64,000 bases of DNA from Eubacteriales bacterium. GTDB taxonomy: Bacteria > Bacillota > Clostridia > Oscillospirales > CAG-272. Location: the NCBI GenBank assembly GCA_045632345.1, contig JAZQWM010000052.1:5229-69228 (forward strand). Direction: 5' to 3'. A model generated the notes under the pieces. That model saw nothing but the letters and a program-made list of their open reading frames with translations. It made no database searches and had not been told where the DNA came from. Below, piece by piece: positions 43,489-63,028 of the stretch. The position numbers and the translations under genes are program-made. Each line of letters opens with the position of its first letter. Position 1 is the first letter of the stretch.

Positions 43489-43496
43489 TATTTATA

Positions 43497-43828
43497 TCAA
43501 GACAAGCACACGTCTAAAAACGCAACACCTCGTTTTATTACTGATTACCCCAACTAAAAATGGGTTCGCCTGAGCAAAAAAGAAAACTCTCCTTTCGGAG
43601 AGCTTAAAAATATACAAACTATACGAATAAGGCGTTAGCGAGAAAGTGGGTGTTTTCGCAAGCGGCTTAGCGCGAAACCCCACTTCGCTCGCCTTCGTAT
43701 TTGTTTTTTAACTCGTGGGAGCGTTTTTGACGTGAGCTTTTAGTTTGTCAGTTTGCTTTGTTTTTTGTAGGGCGTGTGCTTGTCTGCCGAGCGAAGCGAG
43801 GCACTTGTTCAAGACAAGCACACGCCCT
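43497..43828. repeat. 16-nt perfect direct repeat plus inverted copy forming a 16-bp stem
   Basis: TCAAGACAAGCACACG at 43497-43512 and 43809-43824. AGGGCGTGTGCTTGTC (43769-84) pairs with GACAAGCACACGCCCT (43813-28). Confidence 0.7.
43570..43602 (-). terminator. minus-strand rho-independent terminator about 265 nt downstream of the XRE-TPR gene
   Basis: Minus strand reads CTCTCC-GAAA-GGAGAG followed by TTTTCTTTTTTG. Confidence 0.6.
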
Positions 43829-43865
43829 GTTTACACGTTTCACACAAACATTGACTTAATGTTTT

Positions 43866-44999
43866 CTAATCATTACTCTTATATTTAGCATATTTTTCAA
43901 GTTTTTGCAAAATTTCTTGAAATTCAGGTGTGTTATTTACAAAAGTAAAGCACTTATCACTCATTCCATCTATTGATGTAAGACAGGTGTTTCTTGGATT
44001 GCTTGTAGTTACATATTCTCGTTTAAAATCAAGTTTATCTACAAAAAGAGAGGTATGCGGTGAATCTTGCAATGTATTAAACATAATTGAATAATCTGCC
44101 ATTTTATTAAGATTTTCTAAGGTCTTTTCTTCGTTTTCAAGTTTCGCATATTCTCTTGCTATCCAAGAATGCAGCACGGACATTTTTACACAAAAGAAAC
44201 CATAGTCCTCCTTGTAGAAAACTATTTTTATAATATTAGTACAATCTTCAAGAATTTTAATTTTTTCTTCTATTGATGTATTTGCCTGTCTTGTAGCTCT
44301 ATTCATCAAGCTTTCGATAAAAAGGTCAAGATATGCAAAGGTATTTTGTTGGCGTTGCTTTTCACCTTCGTCACCCTTCAAAATTATGCCTAAAAGTTGC
44401 TCTCTGCTTGTAACCATAGTTCCTGACATATTAGCATATTCTTTTGCTTTTTCTATATCTTTCTTGCGAAAATAAGTAAAACAAAGGGTTTGTATTGCAC
44501 TTGTTCTTGAATTTATATCTGTGCTTGACAACAAGGATTCTGCTATATTTATCAGCAAAGGAAATTTTTCCTGTTTTTGCTTTTCATCAAATCCTTGTGT
44601 GCAACGTTCATCAAGCATATACATATAATAAACCTTGACTGTTTCATTGTTTGGAAACTCTGAATATGCCTTTTCCCAAAGCTCATATGCTTCCTGACAT
44701 TTTCCAACCATTAGAAATTCGTGGCTTTCTTTTTTGTATTTTTCGATTTTTTCTTGTATTCGTTCTTCTTGCAGTCCCAATAAATTATCAACTGTTGTGT
44801 CAAAAAACAATGCTATTTTAGGCAACAAGGTTATATCGGGATATCCTTCGCCTCTTTCCCATTTTCCTATCGATTGAGCAGAAATATATAAATGCTTTGC
44901 AAGAGCCTCTTGTGTTATTCCTTTTTCTATGCGTAATTTTTTAAGCATATCCTTTAATGTGATTTCCATTTTGTTCTCCTTTGAGATATTATTTGACAA
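43866..44999 (-). CDS. XRE-HTH + TPR-like regulator (RRNPP-like architecture)
   Basis: 377 aa. N-terminal HTH (ITQEALAKHLYISAQSIGKWERGEGYPDITLLPKIA) and a C-terminal helical-repeat region. Confidence 0.75.
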   Translation of the reverse strand: MSNNISKENKMEITLKDMLKKLRIEKGITQEALAKHLYISAQSIGKWERGEGYPDITLLPKIALFFDTTVDNLLGLQEERIQEKIEKYKKESHEFLMVGKCQEAYELWEKAYSEFPNNETVKVYYMYMLDERCTQGFDEKQKQEKFPLLINIAESLLSSTDINSRTSAIQTLCFTYFRKKDIEKAKEYANMSGTMVTSREQLLGIILKGDEGEKQRQQNTFAYLDLFIESLMNRATRQANTSIEEKIKILEDCTNIIKIVFYKEDYGFFCVKMSVLHSWIAREYAKLENEEKTLENLNKMADYSIMFNTLQDSPHTSLFVDKLDFKREYVTTSNPRNTCLTSIDGMSDKCFTFVNNTPEFQEILQKLEKYAKYKSND

Positions 45000-45054
45000 G
45001 CGCTTATCTACTTTTATTATAATTCACATTTTACACATTTTCAAGAACTGTTAG

Positions 45055-45082
45055 GTTGTATTTTAGTTGTATTTTACAACCG
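45055..45082. promoter_or_regulatory. candidate operator in the divergent intergenic region
   Basis: Perfect tandem 11-mer GTTGTATTTTA x2 (45056-66, 45067-77) bracketed by GGTTG...CAACC. Confidence 0.4.
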
Positions 45083-45194
45083 AATATATATGATGATAGT
45101 AATTAAACATACTAAAAGAAGTAATTAAATTCTAAAATTATGGCTATAATTAAAGTAATGATAGCCTTCTCCGTAATTTTTTTACGGAAAAGTG

Positions 45195-45223
45195 TTGAAT
45201 TTGCTTTACAATCGTGTTATAAT
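45195..45223 (+). promoter_or_regulatory. strong sigma-A type promoter of the ATPase/RloB-like operon
   Basis: TTGAAT, 17 nt, TATAAT with TG extended -10. Confidence 0.65.
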
Positions 45224-45260
45224 GTCAATGAAAATCTATAAAAATCGTGGAGGAACTGTA

Positions 45261-46397
45261 ATGATTAGAAAATTTGAAGTCAAGAATTATAAGAATTTTA
45301 AAGATACTTTAAGTATTGATTTTACAAATGTTCACGATTATCAATATAACGAATATTGTGTAAAAAATGGTCTCATTAACAAAATGATAATTTACGGCAA
45401 AAATGCTGTAGGAAAGAGTAATTTAGGTATCGCCCTATATGATATCGCTATGGATGTTCACCTCTCGAGAAATCCATACAACTATAAAAACGATAGAATG
45501 CTTTTTAAAAATGCAGATGCAGAAGATGAAGAATTAGTAGAGTTTTATTATTCTTTTCAATTTGATGATGATATTGTTGATTATAGTTATAAGAAAAAGG
45601 ACGTTACAGATATTGTAAGCGAATCATTGCACATAAATGATGAATTGATTTTCTCTTATAATACAATAACTGGCGAACAGGATTTTTCAAACACTATAAA
45701 AATCAATGCAAGTGATTTGAATTGGAACGATTTTATTGAAATTTCTGATGCTTCAGGGCCAGATTTTATAGAGTCGACCAAGCCCTCTGCATTGAGATAT
45801 ATTATCTACAATACTATTCAAAAAGAATCCTCTCTTATCACAAAATTATCTCAGTTCATAAAAGGAATGCGTTTCACTCCTTCACTTAATTCAATTTCGC
45901 CAAGACTTTTATTAAATGAATATTTCACGGATGAAGAAAGCTTGTTAAAATTTGAAAAATACCTCAACAATTATGGAGTAATGTGTAAACTCAAAATGAT
46001 AGAGGGATTGGATGGAAAAAAAGACCTTTATTTTGATTATAAAAAGCCTTTATTGTTTAGTAGTAATCTATCAAGTGGAACTATTGCATTGACAAGATTT
46101 TACATTCAATACTTAAGCAGAGTAAAACCAACATTTGTTTTTATGGACGAGTTTGATGCTTTTTATCATTTTGAATTATCCGAAAAAATTATTTCATTGC
46201 TGGAAAATGAATTTGATTGTCAAGTAATATTAACCTCTCATAATACGAATTTATTAAGCAATTCAATTATGCGACCAGACTGTTTTATGATTTTGAGCAA
46301 TGGAAAACTCACACCGATATGCGAAGCCACCAACAGAGAATTGCGTCAAGGACACAATCTTGAAAAATTGTACAAAAACGGTGAATTCGATGAGTAA
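45261..46397 (+). CDS. ABC/SMC-type (AAA_15/21-like) ATPase, AbiLi/OLD-ATPase-like
   Basis: Start MIRKFEVKNYKNF with GGAGG RBS. Walker A GKNAVGKSN, signature-like LSSGT, Walker B FVFMDEFD, TSHN. Confidence 0.8.
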   Translation: MIRKFEVKNYKNFKDTLSIDFTNVHDYQYNEYCVKNGLINKMIIYGKNAVGKSNLGIALYDIAMDVHLSRNPYNYKNDRMLFKNADAEDEELVEFYYSFQFDDDIVDYSYKKKDVTDIVSESLHINDELIFSYNTITGEQDFSNTIKINASDLNWNDFIEISDASGPDFIESTKPSALRYIIYNTIQKESSLITKLSQFIKGMRFTPSLNSISPRLLLNEYFTDEESLLKFEKYLNNYGVMCKLKMIEGLDGKKDLYFDYKKPLLFSSNLSSGTIALTRFYIQYLSRVKPTFVFMDEFDAFYHFELSEKIISLLENEFDCQVILTSHNTNLLSNSIMRPDCFMILSNGKLTPICEATNRELRQGHNLEKLYKNGEFDE

Positions 46398-47148
46398 TGA
46401 TGGACGTAACATTCTTTTAATTGTTGAAGGTGAAAAAGCTGAGGTGAGATTGTTCGAAAAAATCTTATCTCTTTTCCCTGAAATAAAGTTAAATCCCAAC
46501 AACATACTCGTTTATAACACTAATATTTGGGTTTTGAACAAGAGTTTGGAATATGCTTTTGGCACAGATTGGTATAATTCCAAAGATATTGAATTTCTTG
46601 AATTTATAGAATCTAGATTTCCAGAGATTAAAGGAAAGAAAATAACTGACACATTTTTAGTGTTTGATTATGAAAGGCAGGATTTTAGATTCTGTGGTGA
46701 CAAATTGGAAAAGATGTGTCAATTTTTCAACGACTCGGTGGAAAATGGGAAGTTGTACATCAATTATCCAATGATTGAGTCATACAAACATTTCAAATGC
46801 TCCGAGTTTCCTGATAACGATTATAGAGACAGAATTTGCAAAGTAGAAGACATAGCTGTATATAAAAATACAGTTGGTCAAGAAACTAAACATCAAGATA
46901 TAAGAAAATTTTCACGAGCTATGTTTCAACAAATTACAATTCATAATATCAAAAAATCATCGTTCATTGTGTCAAACAAATATGATTTGAATGATTCCGA
47001 AATATTGGATTATTGCGAATACATAGATTTACAAGAAATTGCTAAAATGCAAAACGTACACTCCTCGGGAGCAGAACAGTTCATATATGTGTTGTGTACG
47101 TGTCTATTTTTTATTAGTGACTATAATAGGAATCTACTATATGATTAA
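46390..47148 (+). CDS. RloB-like / TOPRIM-like partner protein (AbiLii-like)
   Basis: ATGAGTAA start/stop overlap with the ATPase. N-terminus NILLIVEGEKAE, later LVFDYERQD and YINYPMIESY. Assignment is from memory of the RloB signature. Confidence 0.55.
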   Translation: MSNDGRNILLIVEGEKAEVRLFEKILSLFPEIKLNPNNILVYNTNIWVLNKSLEYAFGTDWYNSKDIEFLEFIESRFPEIKGKKITDTFLVFDYERQDFRFCGDKLEKMCQFFNDSVENGKLYINYPMIESYKHFKCSEFPDNDYRDRICKVEDIAVYKNTVGQETKHQDIRKFSRAMFQQITIHNIKKSSFIVSNKYDLNDSEILDYCEYIDLQEIAKMQNVHSSGAEQFIYVLCTCLFFISDYNRNLLYD

Positions 47149-47154
47149 TGTTGT

Positions 47155-47216
47155 GGTTCAAATTACAAACAAAATGCTCAGCCAAAACAAGAGGACACCA
47201 AATCGGTGTCCTTTTT
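47155..47216 (+). repeat. cassette-junction element, copy 1
   Basis: GGTTCAA (47155-61), N14, GCTCAGCCA (47176-84), hairpin GGACACC-AAATC-GGTGTCC (47193-47211), then TTTTT. Confidence 0.7.
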
Positions 47217-47227
47217 GTTTTGTTTTG

Positions 47228-47400
47228 GCTGGGATGGCGCTGGCTCGACCACTTTATGTTTGCTTTGCAAACATAAATATGGTTCGTTCTTTTGCCCTAA
47301 GGCGTTGTCTGCTTGCAAGGATAAGCCGTGGGCAAAAGCCTCGCCCATGGCGAGAACCCATCCGCATAGTTACTTTTTAAAAAGACTCCATCCATTCCAG
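47228..47400 (+). other. GC-rich structured patch containing tRNA-Gln-like fragments
   Basis: 10-bp hairpin 47254-47276; CTTTTGCCC...GGGCAAAAG; CTCGCC-CATG-GCGAG. GAACCCATCC (47354-63) is identical to tRNA 40826-35. CCATCCATTCCAG (47388-400) matches tRNA 40830-42 at 12/13. Confidence 0.5.
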
Positions 47401-47482
47401 ATGATGTTAGCACTATACTGTATTGAGAGCATTCGCGTAAAAAACAGTCAACCAATGGTTAACAAAATATATCAACTATCTC

Positions 47483-47511
47483 TTTACATACCACTGAGCT
47501 CGTGCTATAAT
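47483..47511 (+). promoter_or_regulatory. sigma-A type promoter
   Basis: TTTACA, 17 nt, TATAAT with TG extended -10. The palindrome AACCAATGGTT (47450-60) lies upstream. Confidence 0.6.
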
Positions 47512-47552
47512 ATGATTAGTTCCGGAGCAATAATTTCTTGGAGGTGTTTTGA

Positions 47553-48143
47553 ATGTCAAATTTAAAAATAGGCGATAAAATCAGAACAAAAAGAAGAGAG
47601 CGCAATATGACTCAAGAAGAGCTTGCCAACAAGCTTTTTGTAAGCAAGGCAGCAGTAAGCAAGTGGGAGAATGAGGAAAGCTATCCTGATATAACTATGC
47701 TTCCTCAAATAGCACAGATATTTCATGTAACAATGGATGAGCTTTTCGATTACACTCTTGAAGAGAAGCCGTTAAGTATCGTTAACGAATATCATTTCGG
47801 GTTCTCACTTGATGTAGTAGATAGACAAATTTTAAATTATGGTATCGCTGAAGAATGCAAAGCTTACAAAGTCGGTGACACTTGGGAGATATGCGTTGAT
47901 TTTGTATCTAATGAGGAAAATATCCCGTATATATTGCAAAAATACATTAAGCCGGGTGTACTTATTGACGGTTACAGTGTTAGACGAGCAGACGGAAAAG
48001 TTATAGATGATGATAAGCCGAATAAACATTATATATGCAGTGAAAAGGTTTGGGAATACAATCTTTCCAATAAAAAATATATGTGGTCTATGTTAAGAGA
48101 ACAAATAGCTATGGGATTGATTGAAGGAGAGGAAGGCTTCTAA
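47553..48143 (+). CDS. XRE-HTH regulator with unknown C-terminal domain
   Basis: 196 aa. HTH (MTQEELANKLFVSKAAVSKWENEESYPDITMLPQIA) followed by about 130 aa I do not recognise. Confidence 0.75.
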   Translation: MSNLKIGDKIRTKRRERNMTQEELANKLFVSKAAVSKWENEESYPDITMLPQIAQIFHVTMDELFDYTLEEKPLSIVNEYHFGFSLDVVDRQILNYGIAEECKAYKVGDTWEICVDFVSNEENIPYILQKYIKPGVLIDGYSVRRADGKVIDDDKPNKHYICSEKVWEYNLSNKKYMWSMLREQIAMGLIEGEEGF

Positions 48144-48154
48144 CAATAAAGCAG

Positions 48155-48178
48155 AAAGACAGGGCTTCCCCTGTCTTT
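48155..48178. terminator. bidirectional terminator between convergent regulator genes
   Basis: AAAGACAGGG-CTTC-CCCTGTCTTT. Confidence 0.7.
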
Positions 48179-48180
48179 TC

Positions 48181-49341
48181 TTATTTCTCTGCAAGCTTTA
48201 ATGCTTTTTCATAAAGAACTACAAATCTTTCGTCTGTGCGAACATCGTCAAACCAATGCCAATGTGTCATAGCCCTTCTTATGTCGCTTTTTATTCCAAA
48301 AAAAAGCCATAAATATGGATTCCAAGCCTTTGTTCCGTCCTGTAAATGAATGTACACAACATTTGAGCTATCGTTTTTATTTATCTTTGCATTTTCAAAC
48401 AGCTCAGGTTTTCCTACATCCATAAGCTTTCCATCGGGGATTTCAATCCATTTTTCATATAATTCAAATGATTTTTCAAGATATTCAAAGCCTTCGTTGA
48501 GTTCGTTTGCTCCAATCAATGCACCACCTGTTTTTAAACAGAGTTCTGCATAAGCACCGAGCCAAGCTTCAGGTATCGTTCCGTCAAGTGAAATAGTTTC
48601 AAGCACTCGCATTTTGAATTTTGAAAGCTCGGCAGTTCTCATAGGACTTTCAAAAACAATTCCAAATCTGTCTTTTTCTCTTACATCATGATAACGCATA
48701 CAATCTCTGCCCAAAAAATGCATTAAGCTAAGCAAATTATTTGCATTTGATTGATTTTGAAATTTTTCGTTTTCGCACCTTTGATAGTAACGTTCCTCTA
48801 ATTTTTCGTTTTCGCAATCAGCAAATATTCGTGGGCTTCTGTATTTCCAATTCTCAAATTCTTCATCTGGGCATACTATATTCATGTAATGAATCGCACT
48901 TTGCCTTATCCATTCGTTTGTACATTCTTCCATTATTTTTTCGCAAATATGCTTCAAAAGTGGATATTCCTTTTCCCAATAGTCCTTAATTTCTACTATT
49001 GAGCCACCTAAAATTTCCATAATCACAAAATTTTGTGGATATTTTTTGTGATACGCCTTAGCCAATGATAAGCGTTCTTTATAATTTACTTTTCCGTATT
49101 TTTCTAAAAAGCTTTCTATATCGTTTTTAACACTAACCTCGTCATTTCCGATAAGCTCATCAACAGTAATTCCCAAAAAGTTAGCAATAGACGGAAGCAA
49201 AGTTATATCGGGATAGCCACCTCTTTCCCAATTTGATACAGCTTGTGGTGAAACATATAAAGCCTTTGCTTATTCCTCTTGTGTTAAATCAAGACGCTTT
49301 CTTTCTCTTGAAATAACTTCTGAAATTTTCAATTCTACCAT
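48181..49341 (-). pseudogene. XRE-HTH + TPR-like regulator with an in-frame TAA in the HTH
   Basis: ATG at 49341 with GGAGG RBS gives MVELKISEVISRERKRLDLTQEE-TAA-AKALYVSPQAVSNWERGGYPDITLLPSIANFLG, in frame with the listed 48181..49200 ORF. The stop is at 49270-49272, where paralogues have Leu. Confidence 0.75.
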
Positions 49342-49478
49342 AATAAAATCCTCCTGTATGATTAGAGGGAGTGCACACCTTCTGTCATTATGATAACATT
49401 GTTTTGTGTGATAGTCAATAACTTTGCACTTGAGTTTCGCTCAAACAATGTTTGAATTTTACAAACAACAATTAAACA

Positions 49479-49504
49479 GCGAGTGCCGAAAAATCAGCAC
49501 TCGC
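49479..49504 (-). terminator. minus-strand terminator
   Basis: GCGAGTGC...GCACTCGC hairpin. A T-rich tract follows on the minus strand. Confidence 0.6.
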
Positions 49505-49512
49505 CATTTGTT

Positions 49513-50625
49513 TTATTCAAAATTAAAACATTGCTTGACTTTTGAAACCAAAGCCTTAAATCTTTCTGTTCCCCTTATAGGATTTAGCCATTCCCAACCC
49601 TCAGATTCAGTTAAAATCTCATATAATTGTTCAAATCGCCACGGGTCAGTATGATTAGGCGATAAAAAAATCAAATCAAGAGTTGGACAATTGAACTTCA
49701 ATTCCGTACCTGTAGGAATATTCCAATATTTAATGTATAAATCAATTGATTTTTCAAGAGCTTTAAAGCCTTCTTCTATTTCGCCTGACCCAACGAGTCC
49801 TCCTGCTAATCGCAAATATGCCCAAGCCCTTTCAGCAATCCAAGCATCTATTTCCTCGGACGGGTCTCTCAAAGCATCAATTATTTTTAAAATAATCTTC
49901 TGTCCTTCTGCACGAGATTTTGCATTTTTGTATGTTTTTGCATCTCTTTTACAAAAATCTCTACTAAAAATATCTATCAACCCATCTACTATATTCCATT
50001 GAATTTGCTCGTTATATTTTTCAATCTCATTACGATATTCATATCGTGAGGTAATAATGCTGGGTAAAGAAGTATAAAATCTATCACTTACATATTGTGT
50101 CCAATTTTCAAGTTTATCCTCATCCTCTACTCTAATCATTATTCTTATACAGCCTAAGCGATATTCTTTATCTTTAGAGTTATCGTTTTCAATAACAAAT
50201 AAAGAATATTTTCTTAACGCTTCAATATTTTTCTTGGCACAATCAAAGCCCCTCCTATGATATAGACTACATAATTTCCATTGAAAGTACACATCCTTTG
50301 GAAAGCTTTTAATTGCTTCCGTAAGAGTTTTTTCAAACTTTTTGAAATCTTCGTCACTATATATATTTTCCTGTTCTTTGATTGTTTTCAAATATTCCTG
50401 TCGCTTATATTCTATTGTTGTTTCGTCTGTGCCAAAAAGCACATCAGTAGTTACACCAAAATAATTACCAATCAACGGAATAAGCTCCACATCAGGATAT
50501 GCAAGGTCATTTTCCCATCTGCTAACCGATTGATAGGTTACATTCAAAACCTTTGCTAATTCCTCTTGCGTGATATTCTTTTCCTTTCGTAATCTCTTTA
50601 TTACTTGTGAAATAGGCAATCTCAT
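49513..50625 (-). CDS. XRE-HTH + TPR-like regulator (paralogue)
   Basis: 370 aa. HTH (ITQEELAKVLNVTYQSVSRWENDLAYPDVELIPLIG) and a helical-repeat C-terminus similar to the 48181 and 43866 proteins. Confidence 0.75.
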   Translation of the reverse strand: MRLPISQVIKRLRKEKNITQEELAKVLNVTYQSVSRWENDLAYPDVELIPLIGNYFGVTTDVLFGTDETTIEYKRQEYLKTIKEQENIYSDEDFKKFEKTLTEAIKSFPKDVYFQWKLCSLYHRRGFDCAKKNIEALRKYSLFVIENDNSKDKEYRLGCIRIMIRVEDEDKLENWTQYVSDRFYTSLPSIITSRYEYRNEIEKYNEQIQWNIVDGLIDIFSRDFCKRDAKTYKNAKSRAEGQKIILKIIDALRDPSEEIDAWIAERAWAYLRLAGGLVGSGEIEEGFKALEKSIDLYIKYWNIPTGTELKFNCPTLDLIFLSPNHTDPWRFEQLYEILTESEGWEWLNPIRGTERFKALVSKVKQCFNFE

Positions 50626-50766
50626 ATTCTCACCTCAATATTAAATTCAAAGTGCACCTTGTACCTTTATTGTAATGCAAAACTACTGATATTTCAATAA
50701 CTTATCACGCATAATCAACTAAATTGTTAAGTGAGTTTTTCGCAAATTGATAATACTGTGGTATTC

Positions 50767-50834
50767 GGTTCAATTTTCGCACATCCCGTTCAGCCAGAAA
50801 AAAGACCAACTCACTTGTGGGTTGGTCTTTTTTT
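50767..50834 (+). repeat. cassette-junction element, copy 2
   Basis: GGTTCAA (50767-73), N14, GTTCAGCCA (50788-96), hairpin AGACCAAC...GTTGGTCT (50803-28), then a T-run. No same-strand gene lies upstream. Confidence 0.7.
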
Positions 50835-50872
50835 GTTATATTCGCCTGCGGCGAGTTCTATGCACGACCTGC

Positions 50873-51008
50873 GTGATATTGCCTTCGGCAGTGATATGCG
50901 CTTCGCGCGTTGGAAGTTACAAGGGCGAATATAATATCACTGTGAGCAAATCGAACAATATCACTTTTTCGCAGAAAAAATATCACTCTGCTTTAGCAGA
51001 ATATCACT
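50873..51008. repeat. iteron-like heptamer cluster (6 copies of ATATCAC/GTGATAT)
   Basis: GTGATAT at 50873 and 50891. AATATCACT at 50933, 50957, 50979 and 51000 (core starts spaced 24, 22 and 21 nt). The last copy abuts the -35 box. Confidence 0.75.
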
Positions 51009-51014
51009 TATTTC

Positions 51015-51043
51015 TTTACAAGCGATTTAATTTATGATATACT
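51015..51043 (+). promoter_or_regulatory. sigma-A type promoter
   Basis: TTTACA, 17 nt, TATACT with TG extended -10. Confidence 0.55.
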
Positions 51044-51061
51044 TTTTACGAGGTGATAACA

Positions 51062-51424
51062 ATGTCAAACAGCATTTTAAGAGATAAATCCAAAGATTTT
51101 GCAAAGCAAATTGTTATTCTTTGCAGAAATATTAAAGCTAATCACAAAGAATCGGTTTTGACCAATCAACTCTTGCGTTCGGGAACATCCATCGGTGCAA
51201 ACATACACGAGGCACAATACGCACAAGGTAAAAAGGATTTTATATCTAAATTGGAAATCGCACAAAAGGAATGCAACGAAACGGAATATTGGCTTGAATT
51301 ACTGTTTGAAACAGGCTATATGACAGAGGCAGAATACAAGCCAATTCAAAGCGAGTGCGGTGCTATTCGCAGAATGTTAATTTCCTCTATAAATACCACT
51401 AAAGCAAATTTACAACAGGAGTGA
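51062..51424 (+). CDS. four-helix-bundle protein (23S rRNA intervening-sequence protein family)
   Basis: 120 aa from MSNSIL with GAGGTG RBS. Pattern LLRSGTSIGANIHEAQ...FISKLEIAQKECNETEYWLELL. Confidence 0.7.
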   Translation: MSNSILRDKSKDFAKQIVILCRNIKANHKESVLTNQLLRSGTSIGANIHEAQYAQGKKDFISKLEIAQKECNETEYWLELLFETGYMTEAEYKPIQSECGAIRRMLISSINTTKANLQQE

Positions 51425-51430
51425 AATGGT

Positions 51431-51928
51431 ATGGCTATTTGGTACAAAGTTGAACATTCAAAATTGGGAATAAAAAACTTTATGGAATGCAATTGGCATT
51501 TCCACGATTTTAGTATTGAACGAGTTAGCCTTTTATCTAATGAAAATACAGTGGAAATTTTTTTAAGGTATGATGAATTGGAAGGCAGTGTTATTATTCG
51601 TTTTGTTAATGTTCATTCTATGAATGTAAATTTTAAGGTGGAGTTCGGTTCTTCTGAGGGCATTATGGGTAGTGTTTTACTTTTGACCGACAACAGTCGC
51701 TTATTATGGATTGCCGACGACTCTTGGGGCAATCAAAGTGCCCAACATATTGACGAGCTTAAAAATGAATTTTCATGGGTAGAAGCAGAAAATATCATAT
51801 GGGCAGTAACGGACGAAACTGGCAAACCAGCTGAAATGCCAGCTTCTAAAATCGACCAAGTTTGGAACATCTATGGCAAAACAGAATATCACCATTTCGA
51901 TCTTATGCCATATAATGAAGTAGAATAA
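51431..51928 (+). CDS. hypothetical protein
   Basis: 165 aa, coupled 6 nt after the four-helix-bundle gene. No family recognised. Confidence 0.55.
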   Translation: MAIWYKVEHSKLGIKNFMECNWHFHDFSIERVSLLSNENTVEIFLRYDELEGSVIIRFVNVHSMNVNFKVEFGSSEGIMGSVLLLTDNSRLLWIADDSWGNQSAQHIDELKNEFSWVEAENIIWAVTDETGKPAEMPASKIDQVWNIYGKTEYHHFDLMPYNEVE

Positions 51929-52043
51929 TATTTTAAATATTGCGATAAGTAAGGTTAAAATCTCACAAAAATTCTGACTTAAAATCAAATCTTAACTGTT
52001 ATAAATTCTTATGCCGCAAGGCTTTAAGTCAATTTCACCTTGC

Positions 52044-52118
52044 GGTTCAACTGAGGCCTTAAATGTTCAGCCAAGAAAGACATAATCCGAACCGTCGGGT
52101 TAGGTCTTTCTCTTTTTT
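52044..52118 (+). repeat. cassette-junction element, copy 3
   Basis: GGTTCAA (52044-50), N14, GTTCAGCCA (52065-73), hairpin AGAAAGAC...GTCTTTCT (52074-52111), then a T-run. Confidence 0.7.
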
Positions 52119-52276
52119 GCTTGGATGTATGTTCTCACGACCCTTCCTCTTACTTCGAAAGAACATGGTTCGTAATCAAGCCCAAGTCATCTGGGAGGAC
52201 GCTCACAAGGTACTGAGTGCAGATCATTTTCCAACGGAAAATGTATCCGTTCTCTTTTTATAAAAACCAAATCTAC

Positions 52277-52305
52277 TTGAACTTTTATTAAAATTATGAT
52301 ACAAT
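52277..52305 (+). promoter_or_regulatory. sigma-A type promoter
   Basis: TTGAAC, 17 nt, TACAAT with TG extended -10. Confidence 0.6.
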
Positions 52306-52329
52306 CATATCAAGAAAGGTGGTGCACTT

Positions 52330-53169
52330 ATGGGATGTTGGGGAATGGGACTTACCCAAAGCGATGAATACTGCGAAATATACGAGCGATTTATGGAAGA
52401 ATACGATGAGGGTAAACCTCTTGGTGATATTAAAAACGATATTATAGAAGAATACTTAGAAGAATTTGATGAACACGACGGAATCTTTCACGATGTATAT
52501 TTTGCTATCGGTAAAGCGGAATGGATGTGCGGCGGAATATCCGACGAAATTTTGGAAAAAATAAAGCATATCATCTTGAATGGTGATAATATTGCTTTTT
52601 ACCGTGAACTTGAAGCCACAGAAAGCGATTTAAAATTGCGGCAAAAGAATCTTGAAAAATTTTTAAACTCACTTTCTATACCAAGAGGAAAGACAAAAAA
52701 ACGCAAAATACCAACTGAAAAATACATGCCTGTAATAAAACCTAAACTTCCGCCCTTCAAATGTGGCGACATATTTTCGTATGAAGTAAACGGAAAACAT
52801 CGTCTGTTATGCTTTGTATATAGAGGTAAATATTATTCCACATATGCCGCCTATTGCTATGCGTGGCAAAAACTATACGATACTATTCCGCCATTAGAGG
52901 ATTTAGCTAAAGAGTTAGTTATGCCTCTTGGATATTTTACCGTAGATACCTTCCCAAATTTTAATAAACTCACCTACCACGGAAATAATCTGAATTTAAA
53001 AAAACTATACGTTTTCTTTCCAAAAGTTTTTTGTGAGCATTGGAAACCTGCAAGATATGCTATGGCGTTGGAGAAACATTTATCTGAGCATTATCCAACA
53101 GAACATTGCATAAAACTTAGCGAGTGCTTTGAAAAAATAGAAGAAATTAAAAAAAGAATAATAGGCTGA
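52330..53169 (+). CDS. DUF4259-like N-terminal domain protein (polymorphic-toxin immunity-like)
   Basis: 279 aa with MGCWGMGLTQSDEY N-terminus. C-terminal GDIFSYEVNGKHRLLCFVY resembles Imm26-type cores. Assignment is from memory. Confidence 0.45.
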   Translation: MGCWGMGLTQSDEYCEIYERFMEEYDEGKPLGDIKNDIIEEYLEEFDEHDGIFHDVYFAIGKAEWMCGGISDEILEKIKHIILNGDNIAFYRELEATESDLKLRQKNLEKFLNSLSIPRGKTKKRKIPTEKYMPVIKPKLPPFKCGDIFSYEVNGKHRLLCFVYRGKYYSTYAAYCYAWQKLYDTIPPLEDLAKELVMPLGYFTVDTFPNFNKLTYHGNNLNLKKLYVFFPKVFCEHWKPARYAMALEKHLSEHYPTEHCIKLSECFEKIEEIKKRIIG

Positions 53170-53257
53170 CTTACGTAAGGACTCACTAAACGGGTACAAA
53201 TGTCATAAAAAAAGAATGCATTGACATAAAACTATAATCAATAGAAAGAAAAAAACA

Positions 53258-54031
53258 ATGAACAAAACCTACAACCGATATAAAAAAGAACTTTTAGCAA
53301 ATGGTTTTACAGAAGCCAAGAAAAAGGACGGACATTTTTACCGTCAAGCAGCAAGTCAAACCGCATTTGTAATAAATTTAGAAAATAATGAATTTTGTGT
53401 TGACATCTTATATGGCTTTGCTTCTACCGCCTGTATGTTGGGTGATGAAGATTATTTTTCAAATTATGGCTCTAATAAAGATGACTGCCACATAAGAAAA
53501 ATAATATCCGTGTCTAAAGAAAACGAAGAAGCAGCGAAACAAATAATCAAAGACCTTTATAACAAATATAAATCATTCACAAAGGACGAAATTCTTTCTC
53601 TAAAAAAGGAGTGCCAAAAGGAATTTTTAAATAATTTTGCTAAAGTCTTAAAGCCCCTTGGCTTTAAAAAGAAAGGGACTAAATGGTCAAGGGAATTGGA
53701 AAACGGATATTTTCTGTTTTTGGATGCTCAAAAATCAGCATTTTCTGATGAATACTACTTTAATGTAATAATAAAATTACTCAACGAAAGTAGCGTAGGA
53801 TGTTTTTATACAAGAGTAGTAATGGGTGAGCAAAATATCTATAATTGGCAGTTAATGTCCGATAAGCAAATTGAAACTCTCGTTAATTACACCTTGGATA
53901 ATTACATAACACCAATTTTAAATACACCCCTGCAAGACTTAGGAAAGAATAAATCCATTTGTAATAGTTGCTATTGCGAAAGAAACAAATGTGCAAATTG
54001 TTGGCTTGAACACAACCATTGGCAAAATTAA
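53258..54031 (+). CDS. DUF4304-like protein (immunity-like)
   Basis: 257 aa. LKPLGFKKKGTKWSRELENGYFLFLDAQKS...YYFNV matches the DUF4304 pattern as I remember it. Confidence 0.45.
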   Translation: MNKTYNRYKKELLANGFTEAKKKDGHFYRQAASQTAFVINLENNEFCVDILYGFASTACMLGDEDYFSNYGSNKDDCHIRKIISVSKENEEAAKQIIKDLYNKYKSFTKDEILSLKKECQKEFLNNFAKVLKPLGFKKKGTKWSRELENGYFLFLDAQKSAFSDEYYFNVIIKLLNESSVGCFYTRVVMGEQNIYNWQLMSDKQIETLVNYTLDNYITPILNTPLQDLGKNKSICNSCYCERNKCANCWLEHNHWQN

Positions 54032-54073
54032 AAAGCAAAATAATATTAAGCGCATTTATAAAGGAGAGCCGAT

Positions 54074-55165
54074 ATGTTTGAATTAACCAACGAACAAAGA
54101 AAGTGCTTCGCTTTACCGCCTGTGCTTGAGGCTTGGAAAAGAATAGAGGTGAAAAAGGGACCGTACGATACTTGTAATACCTATGCGTATATTGACGGAC
54201 AACAAATTATGAAGGTTATTCAAGTGTGTGATACGAAAGGTCAAGAGTTTTACCGTGAATATTCAGTCAATCAATTAATCTCAAATGACGGAACGAAGCT
54301 TCTTCCTAAAACTTCAAAAGGGAAACCGCAAAATTTTATTGCATCATATCTTGAAAAGAAAAAACCGATTGGAATGTCAATTGATTTTAAATCCAATTAT
54401 ATCGCCATAGTTAATAATGATAGTGAACAATGCTATTATCGTTCTGTATATTGCGGTGAAAGAATAGAAACACTTAGCGATTTTAAATTGTGGATAGCAA
54501 ATTGGTGTAAAACCACAGGAGAAAAGGAATTAAAAGAAATAATTGAATTTTCCAAGCGTACAAAAAGTCATCAAAAATTTAATGAAGGTGATTTTTTTAG
54601 ATACAGAATAGACCGTTCTCTTTATGGCTATGGCAGAATTCTTTTGGATTTTGAAAAAATGCGCAAGGAAGGCGTAAAGTTTTGGGATATATTTATGGGC
54701 AAGCCACTATGTGTTGCAGTATATCATATTGCTACCACAGATTCAAATTTAAAGCCCGAACAGCTTTTGGGAAAAAAGATGCTTCCATCACAAATGATAA
54801 TGGATAATATATTCTATTACGGTGAATGTGAAATTGTTGGAAATATTCCCATTGAAGAGAACGAAAAGGATTATCCGATACACTACGGAAGAAGTATATC
54901 ATTAATAGACCCAAATAGTATTAAATACCAATGCGGAAAAACCTATGCTTCAAAATTATTAAAAAAAGAATTAGGCGATTTTAAAAATAATGGCATAGGT
55001 TGGGACTTAAATGTGAAGTTACCTATTTTGTTAGAATGTATCAAGCAAAATTCTAACGATCCATATTGGCAAATGATTCATCCTTATTATTCAAATAAGG
55101 ATTTGCGAAATCCAAAATTCAAGAAAGAGCTCGAACAAATTAAAAAGCAAATGGGAGTAAAATAG
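54074..55165 (+). CDS. Imm26-like immunity-family protein
   Basis: 363 aa with GDFFRYRIDRSLYGYGRILLDF core. Assignment is from memory. Confidence 0.4.
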   Translation: MFELTNEQRKCFALPPVLEAWKRIEVKKGPYDTCNTYAYIDGQQIMKVIQVCDTKGQEFYREYSVNQLISNDGTKLLPKTSKGKPQNFIASYLEKKKPIGMSIDFKSNYIAIVNNDSEQCYYRSVYCGERIETLSDFKLWIANWCKTTGEKELKEIIEFSKRTKSHQKFNEGDFFRYRIDRSLYGYGRILLDFEKMRKEGVKFWDIFMGKPLCVAVYHIATTDSNLKPEQLLGKKMLPSQMIMDNIFYYGECEIVGNIPIEENEKDYPIHYGRSISLIDPNSIKYQCGKTYASKLLKKELGDFKNNGIGWDLNVKLPILLECIKQNSNDPYWQMIHPYYSNKDLRNPKFKKELEQIKKQMGVK

Positions 55166-55179
55166 AAAGGAAAACAATT

Positions 55180-55497
55180 ATGGAAAAATACGCATGGAAA
55201 GCAAAAATAGTTGACGGAGCATTAGAGGAATACATAAAACGCCACGATGCAATATGGGAAGAAATGAAGGAAGTCTTATCAAATGCAGGTATAGTAAACT
55301 ACACAATTTGGAATGTAGGCAACGAACTTTTTGGCTATTACGAATGTGAAAAGGGCATTGAATACGCCACCAAGGTACAAAGAGAAAGCCCCGTAGTTGA
55401 TAAATGGAACGAATATATGAAGGACATTCTTATAATGGAATTAGACCCTGAAACAGGCGCACAACCTCAACTCAAAAAGGTATTTTCATTCAAATAA
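55180..55497 (+). CDS. rhaM: L-rhamnose mutarotase family (DUF718) protein
   Basis: 105 aa with the YIKRHDAIWEEM...NYTIW...LFGYYE pattern. Confidence 0.7.
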   Translation: MEKYAWKAKIVDGALEEYIKRHDAIWEEMKEVLSNAGIVNYTIWNVGNELFGYYECEKGIEYATKVQRESPVVDKWNEYMKDILIMELDPETGAQPQLKKVFSFK

Positions 55498-55501
55498 AAA
55501 C

Positions 55502-55529
55502 AAAGACCTGACAAAGATGTCAGGTCTTT
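55502..55529 (+). terminator. terminator hairpin ending the same-strand gene array
   Basis: AAAGACCTGACA-AAGA-TGTCAGGTCTTT. Confidence 0.6.
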
Positions 55530-55607
55530 AAAATATTTATTTTTATGATTGATTTTAAATACAATTTATGTTAAAATTACAATATATATGCAAAAGGAAT
55601 GTGAAAA

Positions 55608-60014: not shown

Positions 60015-60017
60015 AAG

Positions 60018-60050
60018 AACACTCACGCTAACTATGCGTGAGTGTTTTTT
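60018..60050. terminator. terminator
   Basis: AACACTCACGC-TAACTAT-GCGTGAGTGTT followed by TTTTT. Confidence 0.75.
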
Positions 60051-60051
60051 A

Positions 60052-60689
60052 TTAACTTAATGCGTCCCTTACAGTATAAACACCTGCATCCTTATTTCTT
60101 GCAAGCTCTATTTGGAAATTAACCACCGCTTGAATTGTTTTATCACTAAACTTCTTGTCAGAAAATTCCGTAATTACTCTTTCAAAATCCTCACTTCTGC
60201 GTAGAATGTCTACGTATTGAGCGATAATATTTTCGTTTTTCTTTTTAATTGCTGGAAGCTTTTCAAACATATTAACCGCCATTTTTCTAACGTGCTTGGC
60301 ATTATTCTATCTCTGTTGTCATCGCAGCTCCATGCACATCTCAAAAGCGCAGAATATGCATCCATATACTTTCTGTCATGCATCATAATCTTATGGTGTT
60401 TATAAAATCTGTCTGCTAATTCGCTCTTGAATTCCAATCCGTCATTGCTTGAATATTCATAAGATTTTAAAAATTACTCTTTGACAGATGATATGCTCTC
60501 AACGTCATAATTTACGTAGTTGCAGCATGGACATCTTTGAATCCAAAGCCACATGGTGCTTCGCCTCATTTCCGGTGGTCTTAAATCTAAATCAGGACTA
60601 CCAAAGCTATTGGTACTTGTAATTATGTTGAATTTTGATTCAGTACCGCAAATAGTGCATTTTTTCTTGAATTCTCTAAAAGTTGACAT
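60052..60689 (-). pseudogene. zinc-ribbon + helical (DUF2225-like) gene, apparently disrupted twice
   Basis: MSTFREFKKKCTICG...CPCCNYV (AAGGAAG RBS) ends at TAA 60474-76, yet the same frame continues open (FLKSYEYSSNDGLEFKSELADRF...). A further frame change near the T5 run 60282-86 joins the 60052..60282 ORF. Confidence 0.4.
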
Positions 60690-60739
60690 TGTATCACTTC
60701 CTTTATTTTTTAATGAATTATAATAACAAATTGCCATAT

Positions 60740-61867
60740 TTATTTTGCATAGCTCAATTCCATGAGCTTTCGCAAACATGATCTGATAGAACAAATAAAT
60801 TCCTCAAACCATTTTGGCAGCTTCAGTTGACTATACACCTCATCAACGTCAGGCGAAACCGTATTAAGAGCAAATCTACCCATGCGGATCTGCTTCGTAA
60901 TTTTCTCCGCATATTTTAAATCCACCCCAACTCTTTCAACCTCAGGCTTTATAATCTCAAAGATATCATCTCTGAAAGCAGGAATTTCAAAGAGCGAAAT
61001 ATCTCCCCTTTGAATTAGCTTTTCTCCGTTATCATTCCATACGTTTGTGCCGTGAAGTAAACCGCAAATTTTAAGCAGCTCAAGCTTGCTTTGAGGCTTA
61101 ATGTTGGTAATTTCAGTTTCCTCTAATAGTCCAAAATCAAGCTTAACCTCATCTGGATTGATTTTACTAAAATCAATATCCTCATATTTAATTTCGCTTT
61201 TACTCTCAAGCATTCTAAGCTCATCTAAAATCGCTTTTGCAGTAACTCTTATGTGCGGATATCTTCTGTAAAAAGGCTCATTATCCTTTGGTTTGGTAAA
61301 GACCTTTGGCAAAATGGTAAATATCTTATCCTCGGTATGACAGTCCACTTCCTCTACAAAATTGTAAACCTTTAATATTTCTCTAATTACGTTATAAGCT
61401 GCTTCAAGTGCTTCAAATCCTACAAAAAGAGTACACCCAGGCGCATCAATCATTATAGAATGCATTTCATACGGAACGTTAAACCCCTTAGGCTTCATTC
61501 TTGCTCCGCAAGTGCATTCCTTTTGACCAACGTCCCAAGGAGTTAGGTTACTGTCAATCATTTCAACTCTTTTGCAAGCGGGACAATAGTAGTGATGCGG
61601 CAAAGGATTGTTATCAGTAACCCCAAGCAAATATGAAATTAAAGTTGAGCCATACGTAATACTGTAATGGGAATGGTATCGCATATTTCTAAGAGAGGAC
61701 TTTATTTTTCCAAGTATTTCATCAAATAGCAACGCCCCATACCCAAGCAAATATTTCGCCTTTTCCATCTCAAGCCTTTCCTTAAAAGCCTTTGGTGCAT
61801 TATCTCCGTAAATATCTTCAAATCGCTCCTTAACAATATCTAATATTCTGAAATTTTGTTCGTTCAT
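60740..61867 (-). CDS. PolC-fragment-like protein (PHP C-terminal half, zinc-finger region and start of the polymerase core); exapted or decaying
   Basis: Collinear with the PolC pattern: FKERLEMEKA..., NPLPHHYYCPACK...CTCGARMKPKGFNVPYE, LLHGTNVW, FRDDIF, LPKWFEEF. The next PolC motif (YQIMFAKAHG) is in the -1 frame (ORF 60474..60794). Confidence 0.5.
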   Translation of the reverse strand: MNEQNFRILDIVKERFEDIYGDNAPKAFKERLEMEKAKYLLGYGALLFDEILGKIKSSLRNMRYHSHYSITYGSTLISYLLGVTDNNPLPHHYYCPACKRVEMIDSNLTPWDVGQKECTCGARMKPKGFNVPYEMHSIMIDAPGCTLFVGFEALEAAYNVIREILKVYNFVEEVDCHTEDKIFTILPKVFTKPKDNEPFYRRYPHIRVTAKAILDELRMLESKSEIKYEDIDFSKINPDEVKLDFGLLEETEITNIKPQSKLELLKICGLLHGTNVWNDNGEKLIQRGDISLFEIPAFRDDIFEIIKPEVERVGVDLKYAEKITKQIRMGRFALNTVSPDVDEVYSQLKLPKWFEEFICSIRSCLRKLMELSYAK

Positions 61868-61954
61868 ATTTTATCCCCCTTGTAAATTATCAATAATACC
61901 GTTATTTATAGCTATTTTAACATAGCAATAAAAACTAAGCGTTTTTAATTTTCC

Positions 61955-61987
61955 AAAGCAAAAAAACGGATACTGTTTTCAGTACCC
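61955..61987 (-). terminator. minus-strand terminator of the membrane protein gene
   Basis: Minus strand reads GGGTACTG-AAAA-CAGTATCC followed by GTTTTTTTGC. Confidence 0.6.
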
Positions 61988-62009
61988 ATTTCGGTAATTT
62001 ATAAAGATT

Positions 62010-62768
62010 TTAAGATCTTGATTTTTTTAATCTTGGAATAAAATAGTATGCGTTTATATAAATAAAAACAAACAGCAAATAGAGAGGTAAATATAATCCG
62101 TAACACATACCAACTATTTCCTGCACCTCATTATCGCGCATAAAATAGAATGGGTCGGGATCAATCTTAAATAAGTAAATTTCCAAAAAAGTATATAAGA
62201 GCATTACACCAAAGCAAATTCCTTCCTTCCAAATATTACAGTATTTGAAATCAGTGAATTTATAGATTATAAAGCAAACGGCAATAATCAAGAAAAATGA
62301 ATGTGTAAGAATAGAATAAAGATTTTCAAACAAAATCAATTCATTAGTAAAGCCTGCGCTTGGATAAGCAAAAAATATTGTTGCGCAAAGTATTCCTACT
62401 ATTGAAGCGAAATTATAAAAGAATTTTTTTCTTACAATCAAAGCGATAATTACAAGCCAACAAGAAATTGCGCATCCTGGTCTAGGTAATAAAATCTTTA
62501 AAATCTTATTAACCGTAAGCTCGTCCGCAAGAATAAAACCGTTAATTCTTCTTACAACGCCTAAAACAGCAATCGCTATTGCCAAAGATAATAGAATAGA
62601 AAATTTAAGCTTTTCACTTTTGTTTTTTAATAGAATTGATGAAACAACAATAAATCCAATACATAAAATCAATGTGATAATATGTAAAGCACCCCATGCC
62701 CCATCAAGCTTAGGATTCGGATAAGTGCTAAAAAGCCAGTCTGTAAAGCTCATGTTAACGTACCTCAT
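62010..62768 (-). CDS. integral membrane protein (about 7 TM)
   Basis: 252 aa, hydrophobic throughout. Confidence 0.6.
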   Translation of the reverse strand: MRYVNMSFTDWLFSTYPNPKLDGAWGALHIITLILCIGFIVVSSILLKNKSEKLKFSILLSLAIAIAVLGVVRRINGFILADELTVNKILKILLPRPGCAISCWLVIIALIVRKKFFYNFASIVGILCATIFFAYPSAGFTNELILFENLYSILTHSFFLIIAVCFIIYKFTDFKYCNIWKEGICFGVMLLYTFLEIYLFKIDPDPFYFMRDNEVQEIVGMCYGLYLPLYLLFVFIYINAYYFIPRLKKSRS

Positions 62769-62890
62769 ATAAAATTAAAACGTATATATTATACCATACG
62801 CAAAGCGAAAGTGTCATTTTTATGAACAAGTTTTCAAAAAGTTCACAAACTGTTTTATGGCAAAGCACGAGCAGAGCCGAATTTACCGAT

Positions 62891-62927
62891 TCAAACTAAA
62901 CAAAAAGGACACCATGAAGGTGTCCTT
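62891..62927 (-). terminator. minus-strand terminator with no intact gene upstream
   Basis: AAGGACACC-ATGAA-GGTGTCCTT. On the minus strand it is followed by TTTTTGTTTAGTTTG. Confidence 0.6.
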
Positions 62928-62933
62928 ATTTAT

Positions 62934-62962
62934 TGGCGGAGTATGCGGGATGAAAATCGAAC
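62934..62962 (-). other. orphan tRNA 3'-end fragment (att-site-like remnant)
   Basis: Minus strand reads GTTCGAT[TTTTC]ATCCCGC-ATACTCC-G-CCA: T-loop/T-stem, 7-nt acceptor strand, discriminator and CCA. No 5' half is present, and it is immediately followed by the terminator above. Confidence 0.45.
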
Positions 62963-62969
62963 TGCTGTA

Positions 62970-62998: not shown

Positions 62999-63028
62999 TA
63001 TATTAAAAAGTTGTTACAGGAGATAATA

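Follow-up and report, generated by a model that had tools for sequence, protein, structure and literature searches.

A 64,000-nucleotide stretch of the genome of an Eubacteriales bacterium (assembly GCA_045632345.1, contig JAZQWM010000052.1; hereafter, the window) contains a 14.3-kb hotspot between a tRNA-Gln gene and rhaM, and the subject of this study is a run of six plus-strand genes at the right end of that hotspot. In order, they are g1 (51062-51424), encoding a four-helix-bundle protein of the 23S rRNA intervening sequence (IVS) protein family; g2 (51431-51928), a 165-amino-acid (aa) acidic cytoplasmic protein without a curated family; g3 (52330-53169), a 279-aa protein of two domains; g4 (53258-54031), a 257-aa protein with a DUF4304 domain from residue 127; g5 (54074-55165), a 363-aa protein with a central Imm26 domain; and g6 (55180-55497), a member of the rhaM/DUF718 superfamily. 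A first-pass annotation described them as one array of orphan immunity-like genes next to a dead recombinase. The consecutive run is present in the open reading frame (ORF) listing, but it is not a single array, as g1 and g2 make up one 1.3-kb module, g3 to g5 belong to a second module of 3.1 kb, and g6 is part of the core genome. The candidate immunity set is accordingly narrowed to three of the six genes (g3, g4, and g5); g1 and g6 are unrelated to immunity.

Profile searches placed g5 and g4 in the families that had been proposed for them. The Imm26 match of g5 (PF15428; E value, 2.1e-18; 67 bits against a gathering cutoff of 23.3) covers residues 171 to 275, that is, 105 of the 363 residues, and the protein has an N-terminal beta-rich domain and a C-terminal helical domain besides. 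The g5 family is large in Clostridia (2,494 matches) and uniformly about 363 aa long, with PF15428 found in all 120 homologues listed. An exact-sequence look-up with g5 matched no contig, and a metagenome contig scan returned nine loci at 52 to 64% identity and no extra strain-level contexts. The g4 protein matches DUF4304 (PF14137; E value, 1.3e-11; 44.9 bits against a cutoff of 23.2), and its homologues in the related loci L001, L105, and L106 are likewise annotated as DUF4304.

The third candidate, g3, had been called DUF4259-like, an assignment that was rejected after three profile scans. The protein matches no family even when hits up to an E value of 1 are included, and DUF4259 was not found at an E value of ≤10 in g3 and 26 relatives or at ≤0.01 in 45 distant relatives. 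Its sole likeness to DUF4259 is the N-terminal MGxWGxG motif, which we take to resemble that family. The protein is built of an N-terminal six-helix domain (residues ∼1 to 115, with the motif MGCWGMG), a basic linker, and a C-terminal beta-rich domain (residues ∼145 to 230). Across the g3 family (927 representative clusters) the helical N-terminal domain is kept and the C-terminal region varies. Some members of the family (407 to 428 aa) have two C-terminal beta-rich domains, and many distant relatives retain the N-terminal helical domain alone (residues 1 to 130), fused to unrelated C-terminal regions; the architecture is modular, and no curated family describes it. Weak Imm26 matches were detected in three members, and a profile-profile alignment (hhalign) of the g3 and g5 families placed the g3 C-terminal domain in register with the Imm26 region at a probability of 1.3%. 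This domain may be remotely Imm26-like, which we give as a hint only. A sequence-profile search of the PDB with the g3 family returned nothing.

The remaining members of the run have other identities. The four-helix-bundle nature of g1 was borne out (PF05635, 1.3e-29; TIGR02436, 6e-34), and its family is not an immunity family. Homologues of g1 in the relatives L003 and L091 are the lead genes of two-gene units with a varying partner; the gene 3' of the four-helix-bundle gene is g2 in the window and either a g3 homologue or a gene for a 222-aa HEAT-like protein in the two relatives. In both relatives, the four-helix-bundle gene also lies downstream of a tRNA and a terminator. No family was found for g2 in profile searches, and its 73 relatives in Clostridia metagenomes occur in scattered contexts. 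The DUF718 assignment of g6 was confirmed (PF05336; 1e-22; 80.8 bits against 23.4). Since g6 scores 53 bits against the L-rhamnose mutarotase equivalog TIGR02625, below the cutoff of 99.6, it is assigned to the PF05336 superfamily only. Its gene stands beside a cyclase gene in L006, L007, and L011, near the cyclase gene in L008, and beside DAO in L106. As rhaM is kept by this operon with or without cassettes, g6 is a core gene and not the sixth cassette it had been counted as. There is no basis for an immunity role for g1, g2, or g6.

The six proteins lack hydrophobic segments (maximum Kyte-Doolittle 19-residue score, ≤1.07) and show no signal peptide at their N termini, and they are therefore taken as cytoplasmic. 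For g1 to g5, Pfam and TIGRFAM-type profile searches gave no enzyme-family match, and PADLOC gave no match. The first-pass annotation had treated DUF4259, DUF4304, and Imm26 as immunity families of polymorphic toxin systems. This is upheld for Imm26; the literature searched does not present DUF4304 or DUF4259 as an immunity family and documents no function for DUF4304. Imm26 has been predicted to act against Tox-URI1 and is present at polyimmunity loci of the heterogeneous kind, those of Firmicutes included (PMC3482391), and TipC, an Imm26-domain protein, is reported as the immunity protein of the Yersinia pseudotuberculosis type VI secretion system (T6SS) DNase effector TepC (PMC10833071). 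An immunity role thus appears reasonably grounded for g5, and it would extend to g3 and g4 by association only.

When the sizeable ORFs of the 64 kb were compared with Pfam, neither toxin nor secretion-system domains were detected (no polymorphic-toxin, LXG/WXG, or RHS domain), in agreement with the earlier impression of a toxin-free window. To the left of the hotspot lie genes for arginine/threonine biosynthesis, AddAB, a GyrB/ParE-type subunit, and a 148-aa TadA-type deaminase, and to its right lie a cyclase-family gene, DAO/Pyr_redox/DUF1667 genes, and GDPD. No recognizable toxin was found beside g3, g4, or g5 homologues in related loci. Two large neighbors were considered as toxins and rejected: the 993-aa protein in L091 is a DUF4886 surface protein, and the 918-aa protein in L107 is a lipoprotein with no toxin-like domain as judged from its translation and with no Pfam match on record. 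An ordinary toxin-immunity locus, the toxin of which was deleted or is hidden among family-less ORFs of the window (7835-8782, 43144-43488, and 60740-61867), is very unlikely in our judgment. None of these ORFs adjoins g3 to g5, the module is flanked by a junction element and by core rhaM, and the related g3/g4/g5 loci are equally devoid of a recognizable adjacent toxin, including those with the large neighbors named above.

The content of the hotspot was compared between relatives by a genome scan anchored on the cyclase gene and by looking up the contigs on which g2, g3, and g5 homologues lie. The relatives are uncultured gut Eubacteriales/Clostridia that have in common a frame of tRNA-Gln followed by rhaM, the cyclase gene, and DAO, and each lineage compared has its own set of genes or repeats in the interval from tRNA-Gln to rhaM. 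L006 represents an empty site, with ∼425 bp of repeat elements only between tRNA-Gln (125-199) and rhaM (from 624). The closest relative, L007 (upstream gene, 98% aa identity), carries an acyltransferase gene, two small genes, a fusion of rhaM and g4 fragments, g5, and an intact rhaM, while L008 carries an oxidoreductase gene and an SGNH-like gene. In L106, a g2 remnant and two other ORFs precede g5 and then g4, in reversed order, and rhaM. The order g3-g4-g5-rhaM is found in L001 and L002 with spo0A on the left flank, and L105 has g3-g4-g5 at 97.7% identity to the window from position 52061, with a leucine-rich repeat (LRR)-type gene on its left flank. L003 has tRNA-Gln, the four-helix-bundle gene, and a g3 homologue only, and in L005 a g3 homologue stands alone between a deaminase gene and mutL. 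Other cargo of the hotspot in relatives includes the acyltransferase, the oxidoreductase, and a DUF4886 surface protein. Empty, partial, and reordered sites with differing flanks are thus seen across relatives, and the array is neither invariant nor syntenic.

Part of the set has also been exchanged recently. A plus-strand tract from 53680 to 55250, which starts near the middle of g4, takes in g5, and ends ∼70 nucleotides (nt) into rhaM, is 97 to 99% identical in sliding comparisons to L001 and, from ∼53909, to L007. Synonymous divergence (dS) was calculated by the NG86 method between the window and each relative. Against L007, dS is 0.51 to 0.89 for seven core genes, 0.18 for one further core gene, and 0.083 for g5. 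Against L001, dS is 0.75 to 1.36 for core genes, 0.71 for g3, 0.75 for the 5' half of g4, 0.10 for its 3' half, and 0.07 for g5. The g5 of L106, which is outside the exchange, has a dS of 1.09. The tract crosses an intergenic spacer and has abrupt edges, which identifies it as a recombination tract rather than an effect of codon usage, and its low dS indicates recent horizontal exchange across lineages. The acquired nature proposed for the array therefore holds for a part of it (dS of g5, 0.07 to 0.08 versus core). The entire g3-to-rhaM block was rejected as the recent transfer unit, as the dS values of rhaM and g3 are core-like and only the segment from mid-g4 to early rhaM is recent.

Two further observations concern recombination at this site. 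In L007 (8085-8412), the 5' end of rhaM is present a second time as a 42-codon fragment together with its promoter. This fragment is fused to the last 40 codons of g4, and the junction contains a 9- to 10-nt microhomology, ACAC(C)AATTT, which points to illegitimate or homologous rather than site-specific recombination. A microhomology-mediated deletion and a Campbell-type insertion of a circularized g4'-g5-rhaM' molecule would both leave such a footprint. The core gene with the dS of 0.18 lies just upstream of tRNA-Gln (39635-40549, corresponding to 3908-4822 of L007), and recombination may reach the left flank of the hotspot too.

The first-pass annotation assigned to the units their own consensus promoters, at 51015 and 52277. 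The sites (51015-51043 and 52277-52305) are present and well placed upstream of g1 and g3, respectively, but promoter-like sites are not commoner in the region than in shuffled sequence (26 versus 23.1 ± 5.2). The region of the 52277 promoter is kept in L105. L006 and L011, which are free of cassettes, have a rhaM promoter with homology to the one that precedes g3 in L001 and L003. The homologous promoter and ribosome-binding site (RBS) regions are L001 300-368, L003 9940-10000, L006 570-623, L011 430-488, and L007 8110-8171; L003 g3 and L011 rhaM share ∼36 near-identical nt, and L001 g3 and L006 rhaM agree at ∼20 of 21 positions in the spacer. In the window, rhaM begins 14 nt 3' of g5 and has no promoter of its own, and a bidirectional terminator (55501-55530) lies 3' of g6. 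The promoter homology, together with this promoterless rhaM, suggests that the cassettes sit between a resident promoter and rhaM, and g3-g4-g5-rhaM appear to constitute one operon.

The tRNA-Gln (UUG) gene at the left end of the hotspot (40770-40845, plus strand; ARAGORN; 63.2 bits in Rfam) is the sole Rfam match in the window at gathering thresholds and is kept in L006, L007, L008, and L003. Its 3' tail CAGCCAAG begins at 40840. The motif CAGCCAR occurs five times on the plus strand of the window; one copy looks random, and the other four are the tRNA-Gln 3' end itself (40840) and the positions 47179, 50791, and 52068, each with a terminator hairpin directly after it. Homology breaks at the last of them, where identity to L105 begins (52061) and identity to L091, covering g2 and 128 nt, ends (52056). 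The tail and terminator at four sites and the breakpoints at the last one divide the accessory DNA into four modules. The GC content of the modules is 0.32 to 0.35, compared with 0.38 to 0.40 in the core, and the entire interval from 40847 to 55179 is accessory. A long duplicate of the tRNA 3' end that might serve as an att site was not found (22-mer, ≤3 mismatches); the CAGCCAR tail alone recurs.

Module 4 (52068-55179, plus strand; 3.1 kb; GC, 0.33) starts with an CAGCCAAG tail and terminator and contains the degenerate junction element B (52112-52256) and g3-g4-g5. Module 3 (50791-52067, plus strand; 1.3 kb) has a CAGCCAG tail and a terminator with a 17-bp stem (50797-50834), followed by g1 and g2. 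Upstream of g1, the word AATATCACT is repeated four times at 50933-51008, and there are subthreshold matches to a Gut-1-like RNA at 50833-50902 (plus strand) and 50953-51033 (minus strand), with 33 to 35 bits versus 50. Each four-helix-bundle gene examined is preceded by four to six copies of a locus-specific 9- to 11-mer in both orientations with small GC hairpins (AATATCACT in the window, 50833-51033; AATGAATAATG in L003, 9280-9400; AGCTAAATT in L091, 10330-10560, minus strand). Module 2 (47179-50790; 3.6 kb) has a CAGCCAA tail and terminator, the tRNA-mimicking junction element A (47226-47372), and three helix-turn-helix (HTH) or HTH/tetratricopeptide repeat (TPR) genes. These are an HTH gene that is shorter than the HTH-TPR paralogues (47553-48143, plus strand), an HTH-TPR pseudogene interrupted in frame by a stop after codon 23 (48181-49341, minus strand), and an HTH-TPR gene (49513-50625, minus strand). 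Module 1 (40847-47178; 6.3 kb; GC, 0.32) comprises an integrase pseudogene, a 114-aa ORF, an HTH-XRE/TPR-like regulator gene (43866-44999, minus strand), and the pair PDC-M12A and PDC-M12B (45258-46397 and 46300-47148, plus strand; PADLOC, 6.7e-96 and 1e-41). The pair consists of an AAA_21 ATPase and an overlapping partner and is a candidate phage defense system related to AbiLi/AbiLii. The genes at 43866-44999, 48181-49341, and 49513-50625 encode paralogues of ∼370 aa, each an XRE-HTH protein that continues into a long, helical, TPR-like C-terminal region in an RNPP/AimR-like architecture; the middle one of the three is broken.

Junction elements were initially thought to separate the units. 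They were found upstream of g1 and between g2 and g3; the spacers between g3 and g4 (88 nt), g4 and g5 (42 nt), and g5 and g6 (14 nt) share no repeat. Structured repeats of ∼145 nt, often in tandem and directly 3' of tRNA genes, were seen in the window (elements A and B) and in relatives (L006, 200-560; L007, 5117-5440 and 6640-6890; L008, 5577-5775; L011, 5600-5990, minus strand). Their closing stem mimics the acceptor stem of the adjoining tRNA, with the 3' end copying CCATCCATCCCAG beside tRNA-Gln and CTCTGATTCTCCGCC beside tRNA-Ser. Three internal hairpins vary in sequence and keep their pairing, with compensatory changes in 9 of 20 consensus pairs and folding z-scores down to -4.5 to -5.0. 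They match nothing in Rfam and could be integration landing pads or RNase P/Z processing signals. Such repeats are present at the cassette-free site of L006 and beside tRNA-Ser in L011, which indicates that the junction repeats are linked to tRNAs and not to cassettes.

The serine recombinase pseudogene reported at the tRNA-proximal end is real and adjoins tRNA-Gln. It lies on the minus strand (41177-42666), has Resolvase, Recombinase, and Zn_ribbon_recom domains (Pfam), and is split into two ORFs (42454-42666, 70 aa; 41177-42460, 427 aa) by a 1-nt deletion near 42494-42497. On the basis of 34 to 40% identity to integrases in 406 phage records, it is classed as a large serine integrase of phage type; among plasmids, a search with it returned a single weak match. 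Module 1 as a whole is an integrative element in decay. Just past the 3' end of the integrase pseudogene, a long, imperfect inverted repeat was seen by eye (41027-41143; arms TTGACAAGAG...GGGAGTGTGG and CCACACTCCC...CTCTTGTCAA); it might represent a small RNA or a site related to att.

A now-dead serine recombinase that captured cassettes at intergenic repeats would make the locus a recombinase-driven array, like an integron or the recombinase-associated acquired interbacterial defense (rAID-1) clusters of Bacteroidales, which the first-pass annotation named as the closest analogue. The shared tRNA-linked region, the tail and terminator motifs and structured elements bounding the modules, and the co-directional, low-GC genes would all suit such an origin. 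However, the phage-type integrase is on the opposite strand, ∼9.4 kb from g3, and in a separate module. Module 1 is missing from L006, L007, L001, and L105, and the recombinase is missing from every relative with g3 to g5 (L001 and L105) or with g5 (L007 and L106). Moreover, repeats are lacking between g3, g4, g5, and g6, and junction repeats are also found at the cassette-free L006 site and at tRNA-Ser of L011. The recombinase module is also the younger one, and the recombinase is judged to have had no part in the spread of the cassettes. The rAID-1 clusters are defined by a co-directional XerD-like tyrosine recombinase at the 5' end, at least 44% identical to BF9343_RS08045, by repetitive intergenic sequences, and by at least two co-directional downstream genes with a GC content of ≤41% (Ross et al. 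2019, 10.1101/471110). Neither the XerD-like recombinase nor inter-cassette repeats were found here, and the low GC content of the co-directional genes (0.33) does not discriminate, as the core (0.38 to 0.40) is already below 41%. Likewise, no tyrosine recombinase was detected in the window by Pfam scans and no repeats flank individual cassettes, as would be seen in an integron. We consider the recombinase-driven model largely refuted and the least probable of the explanations weighed here.

We favor, at slightly better than even confidence, the interpretation that g3 to g5 represent an orphan heterogeneous polyimmunity-like cassette set in the tRNA-Gln/rhaM hotspot, which was spread by recombination without involvement of the recombinase. 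The toxin-less, co-directional, variable, and exchanged character of the set supports it, these being the ecological hallmarks of acquired orphan immunity. Under this interpretation, the modules would have been added one by one at the tRNA 3' end, leaving CAGCCAR and terminator footprints, and module 4 would have been inserted between the promoter and the rhaM start, bringing g3-g4-g5-rhaM under that promoter as one operon. The g5 product would most likely act in the cytoplasm as an immunity protein, binding a Tox-URI1/HNH-type nuclease toxin that enters the cell and thereby blocking it, and g3, with its possible remote Imm26-like domain, and g4, with DUF4304, would have an equal role by association only. 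The cassettes would then be shuffled through homologous or microhomology-mediated recombination anchored in rhaM on the right and in the junction/promoter region on the left.

Several points weigh against this interpretation. No toxin partner is known for any of g3 to g5, and our view covers 64 kb of the genome, so that a cognate toxin could lie elsewhere. Neither DUF4304 nor the g3 family has a documented link to immunity in the literature searched, and the profile-profile alignment of g3 with Imm26 is statistically weak. Foldseek searches of the PDB with the g3 and g5 models gave no match at an E value of ≤0.001, the queries being whole multidomain AlphaFold models (predicted local distance difference test [pLDDT], 89 for g3 and 85 for g5). 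Distant g5 homologues are mostly found alone among housekeeping genes in toxin-free neighborhoods, which fits an orphan immunity gene and, equally, another conserved cytoplasmic function. Finally, the serial accretion and the recombination mechanisms are reconstructed from sequence footprints.

Some of these points are shared by a rival explanation in which g2 to g5 are miscellaneous accessory cytoplasmic genes, with functions such as anti-phage activity or stress response, and the Imm26 match reflects a common fold or domain. The PDC-M12 pair and the unrelated cargo of relatives show what else the hotspot takes up, the g5 family is large, uniform in length, and often solitary, its Imm26 domain covers less than a third of the protein, and the NCBI family name, "immunity 26/phosphotriesterase HocA family," includes a phosphotriesterase. 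Against it, the Imm26 score of g5 is far over the curated cutoff, an Imm26-domain protein has been reported as an immunity protein (PMC10833071), and g1 to g5 have no PADLOC match and are cytoplasmic proteins that match no enzyme family. In addition, the quick spread of g5 alone across lineages is the pattern reported for orphan immunity genes, and in L088 the g5 homologue lies within a long co-directional run of small uncharacterized genes that includes DMP19 and DUF1963. We regard the miscellaneous-gene explanation as possible but rather unlikely.

Comparison with known systems places the preferred interpretation within a described phenomenon. Heterogeneous polyimmunity loci have already been reported, Firmicutes included (Zhang, de Souza, Anantharaman, Iyer, Aravind 2012, PMC3482391), which weakens the novelty for Firmicutes that had been suggested at first. 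The set resembles them in its tandem, co-directional, unrelated cytoplasmic proteins that include Imm26, in the lack of an interrupting toxin, and in its variability between relatives. Among the features tested, the absence of a toxin, the cytoplasmic non-enzymatic proteins, and the variation in content are all present. With regard to two or more unrelated immunity families, g5 provides Imm26, whereas the families of g4 and g3 are undocumented as immunity families and the Imm26 similarity of g3 is weak. The set also differs in having three genes, one of them in a recognized Imm family, and in its position between a promoter and core rhaM inside a tRNA-linked hotspot. With the acquired interbacterial defense (AID) and rAID-1 systems of gut Bacteroidales it shares orphan immunity-like genes, near-identical copies across diverged lineages, low GC content, and co-directionality. 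Unlike them, it is without a XerD-like tyrosine recombinase, inter-cassette repeats, or a visible integrative and conjugative element (ICE) context; its host is Gram-positive, hence without a T6SS, and the sole recombinase, a serine integrase, is dead and belongs to another module. The likeness of g5 to TipC (PMC10833071) is at the level of the domain; g5 has the Pfam domain of TipC with a strong score, but it has extra domains, lacks an adjacent effector, and is from Clostridia. As in tandem island accretion at tRNA genes, copies of the tRNA 3' tail lie at successive boundaries, an integrase is tRNA-proximal, and modules 1 and 2 show gene decay, by a frameshift in the integrase and by a nonsense codon, respectively. 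The differences from such islands are the short tail and terminator repeats with ∼145-nt tRNA-mimicking elements, the serine rather than tyrosine integrase, and the lack of a recombinase in three of the four modules. The locus is therefore best described as a small module of orphan, polyimmunity-like genes within an accretion hotspot linked to a tRNA.

Beyond the hotspot, the segment to the right of GDPD (60015-64000) has a low GC content (0.32), three minus-strand ORFs without a family (60052-61867), a TMEM164-like membrane protein gene, and another copy of the junction-element terminator hairpin (∼62893-62962, minus strand), and it may be a further variable region.

A bolder version of the preferred interpretation is a recombinase-independent cassette hotspot in gut Clostridia, in which immunity-like genes behind a resident promoter are shuffled and swept across species by homologous or microhomology-mediated recombination in the flanks, and tRNA-mimicking repeats serve as boundaries. 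We put this forward as speculation and think it improbable; if true, Gram-positive bacteria would have a system that is functionally equivalent to AID but assembled by another mechanism. As this is a small locus with an inferred function, and as polyimmunity loci and orphan immunity genes are known already, the finding improves an annotation and changes no concept. The abrupt limits of the g4'-g5 tract and its identity of 97 to 99% against a background dS of 0.5 to 1.4 point to a specific gene under recent selection. If g3 to g5 neutralize toxins, uncultured gut Clostridia would exchange orphan immunity genes across species as Bacteroidales do, and acquired interbacterial defense would extend to Gram-positive anaerobes with other delivery systems.

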